Virus record (IMG/VR): IMGVR_UViG_2579778786_000004
Location: 1-47,988 of that record
DNA: 47,988 bases
From: a virus
Lineage: Duplodnaviria; Heunggongvirae; Uroviricota; Caudoviricetes
Reading direction: 5' to 3' (one strand)
Part shown: positions 4,592 through 47,988 of the stretch, in pieces
How positions within the stretch are numbered: the first letter of the stretch is position 1
Layout: each line of letters starts with the position of its first letter
Made by a program: the position numbers and the translations under genes
The notes under the pieces: model-generated
Told to the model about the DNA's origin: nothing
Database searches by the model: none
The model's input: only the letters and a program-made list of their open reading frames with translations

Positions 4592-6925
4592 TTAGGCCTC
4601 TTCAGTAGCTGTAATAATGTCAGCGCCGCACCAGTTTTGCAGTGCGTACGGTTTACCATTTAGTTCAGAAATTGATTCTGCTGCTGGCGAGCCGGTTACC
4701 AGTTCCCACTTATATGTTGATAATGAGTCGTCACTATCAGCGATATTGTGAACGCCAGAATGATAGGTTTTATCTCCAAGCCAAATATTTACCGGAGCAA
4801 CCAGTTTTCTTGATGCGACAATTTTAACTACCACGTCAGAAGCTAATGTCACGGTCAAATCTGAACCATACAAAACCCCCTGCGCATCTTTTATGGTAAA
4901 ACCTTTATCGGCAAAACTTGTTGCCACATTTCCTACATATCCGGGAGTAAATTTAACTGGAGGGACGGGAACCGAAAAAGCTATGTTAACTGTATCTTCT
5001 CTAAAAATAGCCTCGCGCATGCGAAAAACTGGCCTTCCGCATCCCCTTTGCACTAAATCCATAACCTTGCCTGCATCGCATCCAAACCAGCGATATGAAT
5101 TAGCAAACATGTGGTTGTCGTTGCCATCAGGATTCACTGGTTTTGGCAAATGTCCCACCGGATTAACAAATGTCGCCAAGCCTGGATTATTGTCGCAGAA
5201 ATCAAGAAGTGCGCGAGACACCGCCATTGAATTTGAATCAGAGGTATACGTGCCACCCGGTTGATAATTATACCAGTGCGGTGGCAGTGTCTGACCAAAA
5301 ATAGCCATCCCATCCGTGCAAATGTTGTTATAAAGCGTATTTAATGCAGTCATATATGCATCGTACGCCGTTGAACCATCGTTCTCGCCCTGCATCCACA
5401 TGAAGCCACAAAAGCGCGATGTCTTTCCTGCAGCATCTGCTGCGGCTTTAATAGCCTGAAGCGCGGTAATTACGTGATTATAGAAGTTGGGAGTCGCTCC
5501 TTTACTGAGCTGCGCGATGGTCTTTCCCCCAACACCACAACATGCGCCGGCAAAGATTCGCGACGAATCATTATCGACCATCAACCGCTGGTTATGCAGC
5601 AACTTACCGAAGTTAAGCCAGCCAGAAAGCGGGGTTTCACCGAAACTACCGGATGAAGGGCTGAGAGTGCCATCATCTAGCTGTCGCACCTCAATTAAGT
5701 TATTGAGATTGCTGTTTCCTACCGGGCCAAACTGATCTGATGTCGTGCCGCTAACGTAATTAGAGCCTCTCGGAGAATTGCCAAGCATCAGGTTCCCGAA
5801 CATGTTCAATACAGAGAGAGGCACCTGGCTATTCGTTCCGACAGAAAAAGACTGTCCATAAACAATATATATGTTTATATCTGCTGTCGGCATCTGTGTC
5901 AGGTAATAACGCTGCCGAATTGCCCCAGCGACCAGAGATAGAGAGTTGTTAGCTATTCTTGCTACAGAATCGGTGCCTGAAACCTCACCATCAACCCTAA
6001 TTTTCGTCTGGAGTTTGAAGTCTTTAGTTAACCTAAGAAAAACAATCCCGTCAGGGTCCTGCATTGTAATAATGTCAGAGCTATTCCCATCAACATAGAA
6101 CCTAATGGCACTTGACTCAATGCCAATATTGTTCCCAAGCATAGAGACAATTTGTTGTATCCAGTCATATTTAACTGTAATACCTAAACCTTTAGCCACT
6201 CCATTATTGAAGCTGGCGAGAATGCGACCATCCTCATCCTGAACAGAAAACCCATCCTCTGTAACTTTAAAAAAAGAAAAAATGGCATTTTCAAGCAACT
6301 CAGGCATAAGAGATACTTTGCTTGTTTTAAACCCTACCCCGCTATCATCCTCTTCTACTTTGGCAGCAATAAATCCGTCTTCATCGCAAAAATCAATAAG
6401 AGTTTCACTGTCTCCATTTTGATAAATGCTTTCTGCTACAGAATCGGCTTTCACTTTTGCCTCATCAACTGCAGCCTGTGACGGCATTTTCCTCCCGGTA
6501 GGTTCCAGGGTCCCTCCGTTATTAATAACTTCAATAGCCAGCGCGCTATCATCCGGGCTGCGGTAATACGTGGCGCTTCCTGTCGGAATATTAGCAATAT
6601 CTGCCTGTGCATCAGCAAGCGTCATGTATTGCTTGCTCAGAGGGATCAGGTTTTGGCGGGCTTCATCAATAACAGCGTCGGTAGCAGCTGCCATTTTTTT
6701 AGTAGCCCCAGTCATCGTATCCCGGGCGTTACCAAAACGATCTATAAAAGTATCGCTTTCGCTGTTCAGGAAATCATCGTACGCCAGGGCGTTATCATTC
6801 AGATCCTTCATGCTATTTGAAGGTCTTGGATTGCCGGTATTATATCTTTTGTCCATACCTGTTCCTGTCTTCATCTTTTCAATGAAGCAATTAAGATTGA
6901 CGCCCCGCCCCTTCAGGGCTAACAT
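4592..6925 (-). CDS. Large prophage protein with carbohydrate O-acetylesterase (SASA/SGNH, DUF303-like) domain, resembling prophage NanS-p-type esterases; likely true start at 6856 (MDKRY, RBS AGGAACAGG)
   Basis: 777 aa; central motifs GQSFSVG and WMQGENDG match the sialate-O-acetylesterase-type signature (GQSN..G / W.QGE.D); located next to tail fibre genes. Confidence 0.6.
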   Translation of the reverse strand: MLALKGRGVNLNCFIEKMKTGTGMDKRYNTGNPRPSNSMKDLNDNALAYDDFLNSESDTFIDRFGNARDTMTGATKKMAAATDAVIDEARQNLIPLSKQYMTLADAQADIANIPTGSATYYRSPDDSALAIEVINNGGTLEPTGRKMPSQAAVDEAKVKADSVAESIYQNGDSETLIDFCDEDGFIAAKVEEDDSGVGFKTSKVSLMPELLENAIFSFFKVTEDGFSVQDEDGRILASFNNGVAKGLGITVKYDWIQQIVSMLGNNIGIESSAIRFYVDGNSSDIITMQDPDGIVFLRLTKDFKLQTKIRVDGEVSGTDSVARIANNSLSLVAGAIRQRYYLTQMPTADINIYIVYGQSFSVGTNSQVPLSVLNMFGNLMLGNSPRGSNYVSGTTSDQFGPVGNSNLNNLIEVRQLDDGTLSPSSGSFGETPLSGWLNFGKLLHNQRLMVDNDSSRIFAGACCGVGGKTIAQLSKGATPNFYNHVITALQAIKAAADAAGKTSRFCGFMWMQGENDGSTAYDAYMTALNTLYNNICTDGMAIFGQTLPPHWYNYQPGGTYTSDSNSMAVSRALLDFCDNNPGLATFVNPVGHLPKPVNPDGNDNHMFANSYRWFGCDAGKVMDLVQRGCGRPVFRMREAIFREDTVNIAFSVPVPPVKFTPGYVGNVATSFADKGFTIKDAQGVLYGSDLTVTLASDVVVKIVASRKLVAPVNIWLGDKTYHSGVHNIADSDDSLSTYKWELVTGSPAAESISELNGKPYALQNWCGADIITATEEA

Positions 6926-19716: not shown

Positions 19717-20094
19717 TCACTCCGTTGTTATTTTCACACCACGCGCAGCAGATAACGCGCGCTGTCGCAGAGCATGGACATCGGCAATTACACCTGCGGC
19801 CAGCAGACGCTCGGCATCCTTACCGGAGACCGGAATTAGGGAGTTTTCCCGGTAAACCTCACCGTCATGGCGAATGCAGTTCCCTTTCAGGACCACAAAC
19901 TCAGGTTCCGCTACTTCCTGAAAATCTTCTTCATCGTCATCCTGATCATCAGATGAATCGCCGTCTTTTTCGTCATGCTGTTGCGTCATCTGAACGCTGC
20001 CGCCGGCATTCAGGTCGTCGATATTCAGGGCGTCTTCGGTGGCGCCTTCCGCATTCAGATCATCGACCTGCTCGGTTTTAGAGATTTTTGCCAT
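19717..20094 (-). CDS. Acidic hypothetical head-associated protein
   Basis: 125 aa with an Asp/Glu-rich stretch, directly downstream of the major capsid gene. Confidence 0.45.
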   Translation of the reverse strand: MAKISKTEQVDDLNAEGATEDALNIDDLNAGGSVQMTQQHDEKDGDSSDDQDDDEEDFQEVAEPEFVVLKGNCIRHDGEVYRENSLIPVSGKDAERLLAAGVIADVHALRQRALSAARGVKITTE

Positions 20095-20095
20095 A

Positions 20096-21145
20096 TCAGA
20101 CCACCGTCGCGCAGAGGGATGCGTTTACCCGGCTCGGAATAACCAGCGGGGAGGATTGCATTAGGATAAGACGCTGGGCCGGATCTTCTTTCACCCAGGA
20201 TTTTGGCGCATAGGCCAGGGGACCGTAGTTAAATGCCGGGTCCAGGATAACGCCAAAAGCGCGGGTACCCATCAGATCAGCGCCAGACATAATAACGGCG
20301 CCGTCGGGGATCATCGGCTTCTCGACATTATCAAGTGGGTCAATAAACCAGTCGTTATATAACCAGAGGTCAAAGTTACCCCAGCGACCTTTATAAATAG
20401 CGCCCTTCATCGCCTGTGGACCAGCATTAATCTGGTTACCAAACGGGCTCAGCGCCGGGAACGTGATGGCGTTATCTTTGATGGTGGTATCCAGTCGGAA
20501 AGCACGCCATGACTTGCTTGTGAACACCAGATCTGTCGCGACGGAACCGGATTCTTTCAGGAAAAGCGTCTGCCAGGTTTCAATATCATCAGAGGGCTGG
20601 GTATTAGTGGCACCCGCGGCAACCTTCAACGGCCACTTATCTGAACCACTCAGAGTGATAGTCAAATCCGGAGAGCGCCCGAAATCCACCACTTTGGTTT
20701 CATAGCCTTCCCCGGCAACCGTGACGGTACCGGACACCAGAGCGCTGGCCGCCATCCATTCCAGCCGACGGTTGATCATGTCAATCTGATCAGTCATCTC
20801 AAACTGCAGGTTCAACATTTCGCGTTCTGCGGCGGTATATTCACCGCCAATACGCTCACCAATCTGGCGGCGGATAGGTTTACGCAGGTCCGGCGCCCGC
20901 TTGTCTTTGATGTACGCCGGTTTGAACGTATTGGTCTGGTATTTACGGGACTCGACCAGCTTACCTTCCACCAGCGGGGAGACGAATGGCGCCATACGAC
21001 GCAGGCCGACATCCACGTCAATCGCTACTTCTTCGGTCTCATAAGTCACGACGTTCGGGAAGAAGCGATCAAGCAGCCAGTTCTGACTGGTTTTCAGGTT
21101 AGGAACGACCTGCACCAGCACACTGGTATCATAAATATTTTCCAT
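20096..21145 (-). CDS. Major capsid protein (lambda gpE-like)
   Basis: 349 aa, size and position (after decoration gene) as in lambda. Confidence 0.8.
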   Translation of the reverse strand: MENIYDTSVLVQVVPNLKTSQNWLLDRFFPNVVTYETEEVAIDVDVGLRRMAPFVSPLVEGKLVESRKYQTNTFKPAYIKDKRAPDLRKPIRRQIGERIGGEYTAAEREMLNLQFEMTDQIDMINRRLEWMAASALVSGTVTVAGEGYETKVVDFGRSPDLTITLSGSDKWPLKVAAGATNTQPSDDIETWQTLFLKESGSVATDLVFTSKSWRAFRLDTTIKDNAITFPALSPFGNQINAGPQAMKGAIYKGRWGNFDLWLYNDWFIDPLDNVEKPMIPDGAVIMSGADLMGTRAFGVILDPAFNYGPLAYAPKSWVKEDPAQRLILMQSSPLVIPSRVNASLCATVV

Positions 21146-21243: not shown

Positions 21244-21651
21244 TCAGGAGGTGGTTAAAGGTGCCTTGGCGCTGTCTTTCAGGAAGATGGCCAGCGGACG
21301 TAGTGCTGTTTTCAGTTCCTGCGCAGTCCAGGAATCGTCAAAAATAATATGATTCTGGTTGAACTCGCCCATCAGGTACAGGCCGCCGGACTGATCGCCA
21401 TTGGTGGAAGCGTCAACATCATCAACCAGAATGGCCACTGGCTTCTCGCTACCATCCGTTGCGGTTTTCACACTGGATGTATATTTGCCACTGGCGGTGA
21501 TCATGCCAAGCACAGTGCCACGCTTATACACACCGCCGGTGATCGTGCCGGTGTCAGTGACCAGTTGCAGCGTACCGGCAATTAACTGATCCGGCACAAA
21601 CACTGAACTCTTCATGCCAGGTGCAAAGGCATTCTGACCAAATTGATCCAT
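21244..21651 (-). CDS. Head decoration protein (lambda gpD-like)
   Basis: 135 aa between scaffold and capsid genes. Confidence 0.65.
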   Translation of the reverse strand: MDQFGQNAFAPGMKSSVFVPDQLIAGTLQLVTDTGTITGGVYKRGTVLGMITASGKYTSSVKTATDGSEKPVAILVDDVDASTNGDQSGGLYLMGEFNQNHIIFDDSWTAQELKTALRPLAIFLKDSAKAPLTTS

Positions 21652-22241
21652 TATTTCTCTCCTTTAATGGAGTTGTAGAGGCCGGTCATCTGGTTTACCA
21701 GTGCCGATTTACCGTTCTCTTTCTTGCCGCCATCCGGATTCAGACGGACATTATAGCTTTCCTGCATGCGCTGATCGAGAGAGCGCCCGCGCGTTGCCTT
21801 TGGTTGCAAGGCTGGCGCCGTGGATGCCAGAACATCGATAGCGGCGGCAGAGCTCATCCCGGTATTGAATGCGAGTGAAGCGGCCAGTGACGGATTCGCC
21901 GCAGCGTGCTTACTGCCGAAGATACGGGCGCAACGTTTACGCTCGGCGGCGCGGGCATTTTTCACCGCTTTGCTTTCTTTGCGGTCATCGTCGCCGTCAT
22001 CTTCGGAATCGTCATCGTCTTCAGCCGCATCCGGGTCGTCACCGTCATCTTCAGCGTCATCATCACGATCGTCGTTTTCCGCGTCATCTTCGCGTTCATC
22101 GTCCCCGGCATCATCTTCGCGCTCATCCTCTTCCGCGCGACGGCCTTTCGCTTTTTTGGCCTTTTTGTCCTCTTCCTCTTCGGAAGCAGTCGCGCCACGG
22201 CCAATAAGATGAGCAAAACTAAAAGTCTTTTTCTTCGCCAT
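21651..22241 (-). CDS. Capsid scaffolding protein with extremely acidic repeat region (Nu3-like position); ORF track gives a longer ORF to 22325
   Basis: Start MAKKKTFSF at 22241 with RBS AGGAG; long run of D/E-rich repeats; sits after the protease gene. Confidence 0.5.
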   Translation of the reverse strand: MAKKKTFSFAHLIGRGATASEEEEDKKAKKAKGRRAEEDEREDDAGDDEREDDAENDDRDDDAEDDGDDPDAAEDDDDSEDDGDDDRKESKAVKNARAAERKRCARIFGSKHAAANPSLAASLAFNTGMSSAAAIDVLASTAPALQPKATRGRSLDQRMQESYNVRLNPDGGKKENGKSALVNQMTGLYNSIKGEK

Positions 22242-22242
22242 T

Positions 22243-23109
22243 TCAGGCTCCTGTTTTTTCAAGTAAGTTTCTGAACGCAGCATCAGGAGGACACACCTCA
22301 TCAGCCAGTCCAAGTTCCACACCATCAGCAGCCATAAAACAGGCAGCCTGAGTACTTTTGATAACCTTTGCGCTAATCCCCCGATTTCTGGCGACGGTAT
22401 TCACAAACAATTCGCCCATGGTGTTGATGTCCTGCTGAATAGCCGCCAGCGCTTCATCTGACAGCTCTCTCAGCGGTGACCCCTCAGCCTTACGGGAACC
22501 GTAGGTGATGATGGTGACTTTGAGGCCGTCATCTTTTATCCGCTGGGTCCAGTCAAGGTGCATAGTGATCACACCAACTGAACCCACACCACCGGTTCGG
22601 GGAACAGAAATCCGGTCCGCCGCACTGGCAATCGCATAGGCGGCGGAATAGGCGCTTTCCGTCAGAATGGCATGGATGGGCTTTTTCCCGCGGGCGCCAT
22701 AAATGACATCTACCAGATCGAAACATCCGGCGACCTCGCCTCCTGGCGAATCAATATCCAGGCAGATCCCTGTAATATCGGGGTCTTCCATAGCAGTCAG
22801 GAAGGCCTGACGAATGCCGTCATAGCCTGTCATGCCACTGTATGGGCGCAGACTACCCAGCTTCTGCACCAGGGTCCCACATATCGGGATGACAGCGACG
22901 CCCAACACATTGTCATAACCCGGGTCGCTACGGGATTCCCGCCCCCGGTTATCGTCGTATCCATACCAGTCATCATCCATGGCAAGAGAGGATTCGATTT
23001 TACTGATGCCAAACCGGTCCATAACGGATGCCATGATGACTTCAGCTTTACTTGGGTGCAGCGCCAGCGGTGTATTAAAAAGGCGCTGGGCCAGATGAGG
23101 TAGATTCAT
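22243..23109 (-). CDS. Head maturation protease, S49 (SppA/ClpP-like) family
   Basis: 288 aa; directly downstream of portal gene as lambda gpC. Confidence 0.75.
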   Translation of the reverse strand: MNLPHLAQRLFNTPLALHPSKAEVIMASVMDRFGISKIESSLAMDDDWYGYDDNRGRESRSDPGYDNVLGVAVIPICGTLVQKLGSLRPYSGMTGYDGIRQAFLTAMEDPDITGICLDIDSPGGEVAGCFDLVDVIYGARGKKPIHAILTESAYSAAYAIASAADRISVPRTGGVGSVGVITMHLDWTQRIKDDGLKVTIITYGSRKAEGSPLRELSDEALAAIQQDINTMGELFVNTVARNRGISAKVIKSTQAACFMAADGVELGLADEVCPPDAAFRNLLEKTGA

Positions 23110-24740
23110 TTTTCCTCCGGATCGGTAATTGTCTGGCTGGCGAACTGGTCCGCCTGCGCCCAGCTAGGTAATGGAAGTCCGCGCTTCAGGCAGGACTCAA
23201 TTTCCCGCTGGCGCTGATCAAGTATCTCTTCCCAGTCCTCACCCACGTTTTCACCCACTTCAATTTCGAGAGTGGAAAGGCCGGCATCGAGGCCGAGAAT
23301 GGCGCCTTTTTTCTCTGCCACCGGATCAACCCATCCTCGCCCCGGCCCCATCCAGCGCGCACGGGAATACGCTGCCCGGGCATCAACAAAATCAGGGGCA
23401 TCATTAGGTAGAGGTAAATCCTCGTTATCGTGAACTTCCTCCACAAAGGCCGTCAGAAGCGGCTGAGCGGTACCCATGGAAAAATCATCACGTCGGCGGG
23501 TGAGCGTTTTCCATGCCTCCAGCAAGGAAGATCGCGCAGAGCTGTAATTCACATCAGACCAGTCCTGTGTAACCTGCTGAGGAGATAACCCCGTACCGGA
23601 TGAGAAATTACGCAATACTGCAGACTCGAAAACCTCAAAGTTGCTGTAAGGGCGGGCAGCGTTGACCGTTGTTATTTTCTCCCCTGGATAAAGGATCGGC
23701 ATACGGGCGCCGTTCTGCAGCGTCAAACGGCGATCATTATGAAACTCTGCGCGACCATCCTGGTATGCTCCCAATCCCTCTTCGAAGTTTTCCCCCAGCG
23801 CGGACTGGATCATTTCGGGATCGTATGGAGACTCAATATACGCGGCGAAGATAGCATTCAGAATTGCTGCTTCCAGCTCGCTCTGGTCGTACTTCACCAG
23901 CATCTTCAGACGTTGCACTACTGGAGTCAGAATGCCATTCCCCCGATGCTGAGCTCCACGCTCATGGTCAAAGTCGTGCACAACGTGCGGGCGCCCCCAT
24001 GCGGTTTCGCGCGGGATTCGTCGCCATGTCATTGTTTTGGCGCCACTCCACCAGTCACCGATATGTGCTTCACGTATGTGATAAGCCACAGGTGCGCCGT
24101 CAGCATCAATTTCAACGCCGCCGCGGATATTCGGCATATCAAAATTCTGCTGCGGGTTACTGAGTCTGTCGGGATCAACAACCTGCACCGTCGTGGCATA
24201 ACGCCCCTTACCTGGTCCAAGGCGATCGGTGCGATACTGAAGCACCATCAGGGCATCGCCATCAATCAGCTTGTGGCGAAAGGCCAGACGCAACATTTGT
24301 GGAACGGTTAGCTTGCGCTCAACGTCACAATAACGGCCTGGGTCGTATGCCCAGGTTCTCCAGTGGGAAGCGAGTGCTTTTCCGTACTCTTCCGCCCATA
24401 CTGCGTCAAAACTTTTATTACCTGTCATCATCCGTAATACACGATAGTCAGGCTTCATGATCGGACGGAAATTGGCGCCGACCGCATTATCAAGCAGGCG
24501 AGTTATGGCACCATTGGCCCATCCATCATTTCGGACCAGATCCCGCGCACGGGAAACTATACGGTCACGATAGATATTAATTTCGTTATCCGGTGACCAT
24601 AGTGCGGGCTGCCAGTTCGCCAGTTGATCGCTGAAGGAATCCGCGGCGTCATATGGCACCCGGCTACCGCCCGTCAACATGCTGGGTTTTGGTGCCTGAT
24701 AAGGTCTCCCGTCAGGACCAAGGATTTGCACTTTATTCAT
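23106..24740 (-). CDS. Portal protein (lambda gpB-like)
   Basis: 544 aa; size and position after gpW-like gene. Confidence 0.8.
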   Translation of the reverse strand: MNKVQILGPDGRPYQAPKPSMLTGGSRVPYDAADSFSDQLANWQPALWSPDNEINIYRDRIVSRARDLVRNDGWANGAITRLLDNAVGANFRPIMKPDYRVLRMMTGNKSFDAVWAEEYGKALASHWRTWAYDPGRYCDVERKLTVPQMLRLAFRHKLIDGDALMVLQYRTDRLGPGKGRYATTVQVVDPDRLSNPQQNFDMPNIRGGVEIDADGAPVAYHIREAHIGDWWSGAKTMTWRRIPRETAWGRPHVVHDFDHERGAQHRGNGILTPVVQRLKMLVKYDQSELEAAILNAIFAAYIESPYDPEMIQSALGENFEEGLGAYQDGRAEFHNDRRLTLQNGARMPILYPGEKITTVNAARPYSNFEVFESAVLRNFSSGTGLSPQQVTQDWSDVNYSSARSSLLEAWKTLTRRRDDFSMGTAQPLLTAFVEEVHDNEDLPLPNDAPDFVDARAAYSRARWMGPGRGWVDPVAEKKGAILGLDAGLSTLEIEVGENVGEDWEEILDQRQREIESCLKRGLPLPSWAQADQFASQTITDPEEK

Positions 24741-30779: not shown

Positions 30780-30855
30780 TGGTGCTGTTTAACGGACTTG
30801 AACCGCTACCCATTCGCTTACAAGGCGACCGCTCTATCATTGGAGCTAAAACAGC
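30780..30855 (-). tRNA. Phage-encoded tRNA-Thr (anticodon UGU)
   Basis: 76 nt cloverleaf by hand: perfect 7 bp acceptor stem GCTGTTT/AAACAGC, D-stem GCTC/GAGC, anticodon loop CT-TGT-AA, T-loop TTCAAGT, 3' ACCA; D-loop lacks GG. Confidence 0.6.
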
Positions 30856-30860
30856 ATGTT

Positions 30861-30935
30861 TGGCGGGACAGCGTGGACTCGAACCACGATAAGAAGGTTA
30901 ACAGCCTTCCGTAATGACCTTTATACGACTGACCC
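30861..30935 (-). tRNA. Phage-encoded tRNA-Asn (anticodon GUU), one T-T mismatch in acceptor stem
   Basis: 75 nt: anticodon stem GAAGG/CCTTC, loop CT-GTT-AA identical to E. coli tRNA-Asn loop, T-arm CGTGG-TTCGAGT-CCACG, 3' GCCA. Confidence 0.6.
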
Positions 30936-46740: not shown

Positions 46741-47988
46741 CTATATTGCTGAAGGTACAGGCGTTTCCATAACTATTTGCTCGCGTTTTTTACTCAAGAA
46801 GAAAATGCCAAATAGCAACATCAGGCAGACAATACCCGAAATTGCGAAGAAAACTGTCTGGTAGCCTGCGTGGTCAAAGAGTATCCCAGTCGGCGTTGAA
46901 AGCAGCACAATCCCAAGCGAACTGGCAATTTGAAAACCAATCAGAAAGATCGTCGACGACAGGCGCTTATCAAAGTTTGCCACGCTGTATTTGAAGACGG
47001 ATATGACACAAAGTGGAACCTCAATGGCATGTAACAACTTCACTAATGAAATAATCCAGGGGTTAACGAACAGCGCGCAGGAAAGGATACGCAACGCCAT
47101 AATCACAACTCCGATAAGTAATGCATTTTTTGGCCCTACCCGATTCACAAAGAAAGGAATAATCGCCATGCACAGCGCTTCGAGTACCACCTGGAATGAG
47201 TTGAGATAACCATACAGGCGCGTTCCTACATCGTGTGATTCGAATAAACCTGCATAAAAGACAGGAAAAAGTTGTTGATCAAAAATGTTATAGAAAGACC
47301 ACGTCCCCACAATAAATATGACAAAAACCCAGAAGTTTCGATCCTTGAAAACTGCGATAAAATCCTCTTTTTTTACCCCTCCCGCATCTGCCGCTACGCA
47401 CTGGTGATCCTTATCTTTAAAACGCATGTTGATCATCATAAATACAGCGCCAAATAGCGAGACCAACCAGAAGTTGATATGGGGACTGATACTAAAAAAT
47501 ATGCCGGCAAAGAACGCGCCAATAGCATAGCCAAAAGATCCCCAGGCGCGCGCTGTTCCATATTCGAAATGAAAATTTCGCGCCATTTTTTCGGTGAAGC
47601 TATCAAGCAAACCGCATCCCGCCAGATACCCCAAGCCAAAAAATAGCGCCCCCAGAATTAGACCTACAGAAAAATTGCTTTGCAGTAACGGTTCATAAAC
47701 GTAAATCATAAACGGTCCGGTCAAGACCAGGATGAAACTCATACACCAGATGAGCGGTTTCTTCAGACCGAGTTTATCCTGAACGATGCCGTAGAACATC
47801 ATAAATAGAATGCTGGTAAACTGGTTGACCGAATAAAGTGTACCTAATTCCGTCCCTGTCAACCCTAGATGTCCTTTCAGCCAAATAGCGTATAACGACC
47901 ACCACAGCGACCAGGAAATAAAAAAGAGAAATGAGTAACTGGATGCAAAACGATAGTACGCATTTCTGAATGGAATATTCAGTGCCAT
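46741..47988 (-). CDS. cscB: MFS oligosaccharide:H+ symporter of the LacY family (sucrose permease CscB-like); host gene right of the prophage
   Basis: 415 aa, 12 TM segments, LacY-family motifs; N-terminus MALNIPFRNAYYRFASSYSF as recalled for CscB; start codon at window edge. Confidence 0.7.
   Translation of the reverse strand: MALNIPFRNAYYRFASSYSFLFFISWSLWWSLYAIWLKGHLGLTGTELGTLYSVNQFTSILFMMFYGIVQDKLGLKKPLIWCMSFILVLTGPFMIYVYEPLLQSNFSVGLILGALFFGLGYLAGCGLLDSFTEKMARNFHFEYGTARAWGSFGYAIGAFFAGIFFSISPHINFWLVSLFGAVFMMINMRFKDKDHQCVAADAGGVKKEDFIAVFKDRNFWVFVIFIVGTWSFYNIFDQQLFPVFYAGLFESHDVGTRLYGYLNSFQVVLEALCMAIIPFFVNRVGPKNALLIGVVIMALRILSCALFVNPWIISLVKLLHAIEVPLCVISVFKYSVANFDKRLSSTIFLIGFQIASSLGIVLLSTPTGILFDHAGYQTVFFAISGIVCLMLLFGIFFLSKKREQIVMETPVPSAI

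Follow-up and report, generated by a model that had tools for sequence, protein, structure and literature searches.

The locus examined here raises the question of what a densely acidic tract is doing in a small protein encoded in the head module of a tailed phage, and of whether this protein is indeed the scaffold that its position suggests. We analysed the whole stretch of viral DNA in which it lies (IMG/VR record IMGVR_UViG_2579778786_000004, 47,988 nucleotides; hereafter, the window). The interval given for the gene by the original prediction coincides exactly with one minus-strand open reading frame (21651..22241), which comprises 196 codons and a TAA stop. Its ATG, at 22241, is located 4 nt past the TGA (22243-22245, minus strand) of the gene for the S49 head maturation protease and is preceded at 6 nt by an AGGAG Shine-Dalgarno sequence (22248..22252, minus strand) embedded in the final protease codons, while its TAA shares one base with the ATG of the following head decoration gene (TAATG). 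Citrobacter phage phiNP also carries ACAGGAGCCTGA[A/T]ATG at the scaffold start, and the combination of a strong Shine-Dalgarno sequence and ATG is conserved at this site. The scaffold is a stand-alone, translationally coupled gene, and the protease stops short.

The protein has so far gone without a functional name. It matches phrog_6382 ("unknown function") over its full length (E 5.8e-74), and PGAP and GenBank label the gene "hypothetical protein", as they do its counterparts in E. coli EC20, phiNP and Serratia phage BZS1. PHROG 6382 and the PGAP "hypothetical proteins" of the WP_086642363 type belong to the same sequence family, and their assignment as scaffolds is a new annotation. Searches of Pfam and NCBIfam returned no domain above threshold; Pfam matches to Nop14 and CDC45, together with matches in NCBIfam, were sub-threshold, driven by acidic/basic low complexity, and were dismissed. 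At the nucleotide level, megablast of the gene against a phage collection found no match, and tblastn against the same collection recovered phiNP and BZS1 only, in both cases through the C-terminal domain only.

The window is a complete prophage. At its left end we find a host formate/nitrite transporter gene (1-2405 region), a tRNA-Arg(CCT) gene (1009-1083) that is likely the attachment site, and the integrase gene (1209-2405), and at its right end a LacY-like host gene (46741-47988); the interior of the prophage holds two further tRNA genes, Thr-TGT and Asn-GTT (30780-30935). Its head module is of the lambda type, its contractile tail of the Mu type and its regulation lambdoid, a combination also seen in the prophage of EC20, with its CI/CII/O/P/Q-like regulators, whose annotated gene region is 99.5% identical at the DNA level to that of the scaffold. 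The two isolated relatives, phiNP and BZS1, are myoviruses with conserved gene order, and both are viable phages (PMC6456863; PMC7556043), with phiNP plating on and transfecting E. coli K-12 (PMC6456863). Outside the head module, an acyltransferase gene (PF01757; 7221-8312, plus strand) runs counter to the tail genes and adjoins the gene for a 777-aa protein with a SASA/acetylesterase domain (4592-6925, minus strand), a pair that looks like O-antigen or surface-sugar modification cargo, as for p24 of BZS1 (PMC7556043).

Within the head module, all on the minus strand, the scaffold gene follows those for a portal protein of the lambda gpB family (23106..24740; PF05136, E 1e-100) and a 288-aa S49 head maturation protease of the lambda gpC type (22243..23109; PF01343, E 9e-28), and precedes those for a head decoration protein of the lambda gpD family (21244..21651; PF02924, E 2.7e-22) and a major capsid protein of the lambda gpE family (20096..21145; PF03864, E 1.9e-61). 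The protease matches positions 6-290 of the phrog_53 profile only and is devoid of the Nu3-like C-terminal domain of lambda gpC. The same order of portal, S49 protease, scaffold, gpD-like decoration protein and gpE-like capsid protein is found in all 12 related loci compared, which come from Citrobacter, Kluyvera, Raoultella, Salmonella, Hafnia, Brenneria and Erwinia and include phages phiNP and BZS1, and in all 12 the scaffold is the most divergent and fastest-evolving gene of the head module. An enterobacterial head module, with a portal 91% and a capsid protein 89% identical to those of the window, is also present on a contig (L009) labelled Vagococcus sp. WN89Y, a Gram-positive label that most likely reflects assembly contamination or mislabelling.

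Directly 3' of the major capsid gene lies an ORF of 125 aa (19717-20094, minus strand) with an acidic patch of its own, DSSDDQDDDEEDFQE, which is the sole other stretch in a six-frame scan of the window where D/E reach at least 50% over 30 aa. It matches DUF7210 weakly and falls into phrog_24496 (unknown function). It is kept in this position after the capsid gene in 11 of the 12 related loci, and the position-equivalent protein of BZS1, p09, was not detected in virions by mass spectrometry (PMC7556043).

The link to a known scaffold goes through the C-terminal domain (aa 87-196; 21654..21983, minus strand), whose net charge is about +8 to +11. In the phrog_53 profile, which represents the lambda gpC family, the scaffold matches the positions that follow the protease part, as lambda Nu3 does, and in phrog_17040 the C-terminal domain (E 7e-10) and lambda Nu3 (E 1.6e-11) match the same positions; reciprocally, lambda Nu3 matches phrog_6382 (E 3.8e-4). 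In line with this, hhalign of a 106-sequence profile against lambda gpC aligned 75 columns (E 1.9e-5, probability 78%), pairing scaffold residues 90-166 with residues 347-421 of gpC, inside Nu3, and a pairwise BLASTP alignment with lambda Nu3 is colinear, though not significant (E 0.027). The C-terminal domain is thus remotely homologous to lambda Nu3. The original prediction had spoken only of a protein in scaffold position; this is borne out by the order in the 12 loci and raised to the level of homology by the reciprocal PHROG matches and the hhalign result.

Structure prediction agrees with a three-part protein. In an AlphaFold2 model computed with the 106-sequence alignment, residues 1-89 are predicted to be disordered (pLDDT 42-60), at 55-60 in the N-terminal segment and at 42-52, without secondary structure, in the acidic tract. 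Residues 91-140 (21822-21971) are predicted to form a small helical bundle (pLDDT 89-95), followed at lower confidence by helices 155-161 and 178-193. A search of BFVD produced significant matches only to a "prohead protease" fragment and to the C-termini of S49 proteins, and a PDB search found no solved structure that is similar to the scaffold by sequence or fold, nor one that covers lambda Nu3. The protein thus shows what is expected of a Nu3-type scaffold in its predicted disordered and helical make-up, free of any enzymatic domain in Pfam and NCBIfam, and in its place in the head module; the homology to lambda Nu3 and the C-terminus of gpC is remote but consistent, and the gene departs from the Nu3 pattern in being a separate ORF in another frame rather than one encoded in frame inside the 3' part of the protease gene. 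Lambda gpNu3 itself is described as intrinsically disordered in the title of Medina et al. (2011; cited in PMC11922011). In BZS1, mass spectrometry of virions detected the decoration (p07) and capsid (p08) proteins and missed p06, the orthologue of the scaffold (PMC7556043), an absence that fits a scaffold role and yet is weak evidence, because the portal (p04) also went undetected and acidic peptides are easily missed.

The acidic tract is centred on aa 37-86 (21984..22133, minus strand), where 36 of 50 residues (72%) are D/E (26 D and 10 E, with 6 A, 3 R and 3 G), a density whose probability is about 3e-23 for at least 36 in 50 at a background of 11.5% D+E, and the net charge reaches -33 over 51 aa. 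The density falls off as the frame of reference widens, to 60% D/E over residues 20-87, 48% over the 90-residue span 21-110, which also holds 19 K/R, and 47% over the whole N-terminal region of 87 aa. The tract is therefore real, but the description of about 90 residues made almost exclusively of D/E was overstated; the figure roughly fits the acid-rich linker between the two conserved motifs of the protein, which spans 86 aa and contains 42 D/E. The short repeats proposed for it are likewise present but degenerate. Tandem Repeats Finder reports a period of 27 nt with 2.3 copies and 76% matches in the tract DNA, the direct repeat copies are 65-83% identical, and the units at the protein level are degenerate variants resembling DDAEDDER. 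This copy does not have the near-identical head-to-tail DNA units of a recently expanded slippage repeat, and since its repeats have decayed to 65-83% identity, we regard the tract as old and maintained rather than as a product of recent slippage.

The same DNA is also open in other frames (window 21820-22274 on the plus strand and 21962-22216 on the minus strand), with a Ser-rich ORF of 130 aa and ORFs of 112 and 122 aa on the plus strand and one of 84 aa on the minus strand. The GAN-codon repeats of the tract account mechanically for these three extra open frames, and no supporting homologues were found for the alternative-frame ORFs.

The gene is widespread. Among 5426 complete E. coli genomes, 58 contain the 1866-nt stretch spanning protease, scaffold and decoration genes, and 19 share it at ≥99% identity; in six listed ones, which come from different sources and hosts (H3 and H5-H9), its length is identical and its identity 98.8-99.5%. 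A Klebsiella variicola protein has an identical 50-aa tract. A protein search collected 708 homologues from Escherichia, Klebsiella, Raoultella, Citrobacter, Enterobacter, Pectobacterium, Edwardsiella and Kluyvera, all of them labelled "hypothetical" and all staying in frame into the conserved C-terminal domain, and orthologues occur in the two isolated phages. A search with the C-terminal domain alone against 1.84 billion cluster representatives yielded 325 clusters. From these relatives we compared the 120 closest clusters and, as a distant set, 131 stand-alone representatives at ≤50% mutual identity. Multi-stretch phmmer matches to P0130, P0136, P0138 and P0191 were set aside as compositional noise, these being T/A/S-rich repeat proteins.

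Comparing repeat length across relatives, as the original prediction had proposed, shows that the tract expands and contracts by whole units in frame. Among the 120 closest clusters, proteins range from 178 to 208 aa and core tracts from 18 to 52 aa, and the copy in the window (196 aa, with a tract of 50 aa) has the modal length among its closest relatives. One homologue (P0008) lacks 15 aa and is otherwise 99% identical, another (P0053) has perfect units, with DDCDDPE three times, and two more (P0088 and P0106) carry DDDPDDDPDAS units. Overall, tracts are D-rich, E-rich or of the DDDPDAS type, and Raoultella and Klebsiella electrica have the Glu-rich tract EEEQEEEAEEEE where the window copy is Asp-rich. 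Through all this, the linker between the conserved motifs measures 67-117 aa in all cases examined, and its median net charge is -26 across 117 close and -19 across 42 distant relatives. In the distant set, 130 of the 131 representatives have an N-terminal region with a net negative charge; the median charge is -19 and the median D/E fraction 0.36, compared with -26 and 0.47 in this copy; D/E fractions at least as high as that of the window copy occur in four of the 131, and charges equally or more negative in ten. Judged from these comparisons, the acidic linker is a family trait that keeps its charge and rough length and leaves its sequence free. The original prediction considered the tract unusual even for scaffold proteins, whereas an acidic N-terminal region is the rule in this family; this copy sits at the high end of the family range and is not an outlier. 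In BZS1, a module made of KEKGKKAKSRRAEE and an acidic block is duplicated in p06 (L015, 3210-3809), which shows basic patch and acidic block to behave as a single evolutionary unit.

In front of the tract lies a conserved N-terminal segment (aa 1-36; 22134..22241, minus strand; MAKKKTFSFAHLIGRG...EEEEDKKAKKAKGRRA) that contains an F-S-F-A-H-L motif (22206-22223, minus strand) followed by a Lys/Arg patch. Conservation is higher in the pattern MAKKxFSFAHLxG and its Lys/Arg patch than in the tract: M1, F9, H11 and L12 are ≥90% conserved in the 106 sequences, down to about 31% identity, and a motif of the F/x-H-L type is found within the first 30 aa of 126 of the 131 distant representatives. Lambda Nu3 has neither a FAHL motif nor a Lys-rich patch. 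The protease, for its part, begins with NLPHLAQRLFNTPL (23089-23103, minus strand), which is invariant in 12 orthologues and matches NLPHIASMAFNEPL of lambda gpC. FAHL of the scaffold and NLPHLA of the protease (NLPHIA in lambda) share a hydrophobic-x-H-L/I element at the start of both proteins, which may be a coincidence or a common docking signal and is too short to interpret.

Taken together, we consider it probable that the gene encodes a separate Nu3-type scaffold of a temperate myovirus prophage, made of an N-terminal motif, a disordered polyanionic linker and a basic, Nu3-like C-terminal domain. Against this stands the remoteness of the Nu3 homology, with BLASTP at E 0.027 and hhalign at 78% and not above 95%. 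From the gene and its tract, the synteny, the remote homology to Nu3, the predicted disorder and helices, and the conservation of negative charge and N-terminal motif, we infer every functional step of a possible mechanism. Procapsid assembly would be driven, as it is by Nu3 in lambda, through binding of the C-terminal domain to the capsid protein and probably also to itself. The linker (about 50-85 aa) would reach into the lumen of the procapsid and serve there as a flexible spacer of high charge, whose function would depend on charge and approximate length and not on sequence, and which would hold the scaffold soluble and extended and the lumen clear of nucleic acid. The S49 protease would then cleave the scaffold, and the linker fragments would exit as DNA comes in. 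The N-terminal motif would dock a partner, for example the protease or the portal; possibly it is the protease, which here does not have the Nu3 domain that targets lambda gpC.

A more specific form of this proposal is a "split gpC" design, where a three-part scaffold takes over from the covalent link between protease and scaffold in lambda. FAHL would recruit the protease or portal non-covalently, and the polyanionic linker, conserved in charge and free in sequence, would take the place of nucleic acid inside the procapsid, set the spacing by electrostatic repulsion, exclude host nucleic acid and be displaced by DNA after proteolysis. We put it forward tentatively, as a possibility with the balance against it. 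If true, it would provide a disordered polyelectrolyte whose role in capsid assembly is defined and which is genetically tractable, because phiNP plates on E. coli K-12.

The reading that competes best with a charge-dependent linker accepts the scaffold but takes the tract for a tolerated low-complexity spacer that drifts by slippage, with only its flexibility and rough length being of importance. The wide range of core tract lengths (18-52 aa), the gain and loss of units even between near-identical proteins such as P0008, the poor conservation of the tract sequence and the fast evolution of the scaffold in all 12 loci would all be accounted for by it. However, drift should not hold the net charge negative in 130 of 131 representatives at ≤50% mutual identity, nor would it be expected to replace Asp by Glu wholesale and leave the tract acidic, and the degenerate DNA repeats speak for an old, maintained sequence. 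We thus consider a neutral spacer unlikely.

Still less likely is that the tract serves as a nucleic-acid surrogate or DNA mimic, a role that the original prediction had raised, either by covering basic, DNA-facing surfaces inside the shell until DNA takes over or by inhibiting DNA-binding defence proteins of the host after release by proteolysis. Its charge is very dense (-33 over 51 aa, 72% D/E over the 50-aa core), abundant late expression is likely by analogy with lambda Nu3, and acidic phage mimics such as Ocr exist. Mimics of the Ocr and ArdA type, however, are folded, with carboxylates that imitate B-DNA, whereas the tract is predicted to be disordered (pLDDT 42-52, no secondary structure) and to have no structured charge array. 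We further found no similarity in fold or sequence to any known mimic, the matches in PDB and BFVD being confined to the C-termini of S49 proteases; the gene sits in a late head operon and is tied to Nu3 by homology, and the BZS1 orthologue was undetected in virions.

A programmed +1 frameshift at the A6 run GAAAAAAC (22253-22260, minus strand; 15 nt 5' of the protease stop), which would fuse protease and scaffold in a gpC-like manner, is highly improbable and was rejected. In its favour, no stop interrupts the scaffold frame of the window over the 53 codons that precede the ATG, tRNA-Lys slipping by +1 on AAA-A would bring protease and scaffold into a single frame, and a database protein (P0017) is a protease-scaffold fusion. 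The run, however, is not conserved, with phiNP having TCACTGACAGGAG in its place and the Salmonella loci likewise lacking it, and in phiNP, Salmonella and other loci a stop interrupts the scaffold frame 4 codons before the ATG, which itself keeps its strong Shine-Dalgarno sequence. P0017 (306 aa, on a 1162-nt Logan contig) changes frame not at the A run but about 35 codons before the normal scaffold start, and its junction fits an indel or a sequencing error, not a natural fusion.

Finally, that the repeat is a sequencing or assembly artefact, the outcome named in advance as fatal to the original prediction, or that the ORF is no gene at all, deserves practically no credence and is refuted, for although low-complexity GAN repeats are prone to mis-assembly and three further frames are open across the tract, the region occurs in 58 complete E. 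coli genomes, at equal length and ≥98.8% identity in the six listed independent ones, the 708 homologues keep their frame into the conserved C-terminal domain, and two isolated, viable phages carry orthologues.

For the preferred reading, a Nu3-type scaffold with a polyanionic linker, the most direct consequence is one of annotation, as the name of scaffolding protein of the lambda-head/Mu-tail temperate phages of Enterobacterales can be given to a widespread family with 708 close homologues and about 325 clusters at 50% identity. It also means that the nested C/Nu3 gene arrangement of lambda has a split alternative, and that a three-part architecture exists which preserves negative charge but not sequence. 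If this charge is functional, phiNP and BZS1 would offer a simple system for the study of a polyanionic disordered region inside a procapsid. The current understanding of scaffolds is not overturned by these findings.

Among known systems, T7 Ocr and ArdA come close to the tract in their high density of Asp and Glu. They are folded proteins with charges placed like those of B-DNA, made early and acting on host enzymes, whereas the tract of the window is predicted to be disordered and belongs to a late head-assembly gene. A precedent for polyanionic material in a procapsid is the prohead core of T4 (gp22 and the acidic internal peptides II and VII), which is strongly acidic and cut by the head protease into acidic peptides. 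The T4 protease (gp21) is a different one, the T4 core is structured and helical, the acidic peptides of T4 stay in the head, and we know of no sequence relationship between the T4 core proteins and the scaffold of the window. The scaffolds of P22 (gp8) and phi29 (gp7) are, as here, encoded by separate genes, and in both a small helical region binds the coat protein, in part electrostatically, while the rest is flexible (PMC11922011); they are, however, unrelated to the window scaffold in sequence and fold and have no poly-acidic tract, and the P22 scaffold exits intact and is recycled without a protease. The closest counterpart is lambda gpNu3, which interacts with C, B, E and itself (PMC3224144). 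Both scaffolds are encoded in the head operon after the portal and an S49 protease of the gpC type, their partner, and before gpD and gpE, and both combine a disordered, acid-leaning N-terminal part with a C-terminal helical region that is remotely homologous between them. In contrast to lambda, where Nu3 is translated in frame inside gene C, the protease carries the Nu3 domain and the N-terminal part of Nu3 is mildly acidic, the scaffold of the window is a separate gene in another frame, and its linker is 72% D/E over 50 aa.
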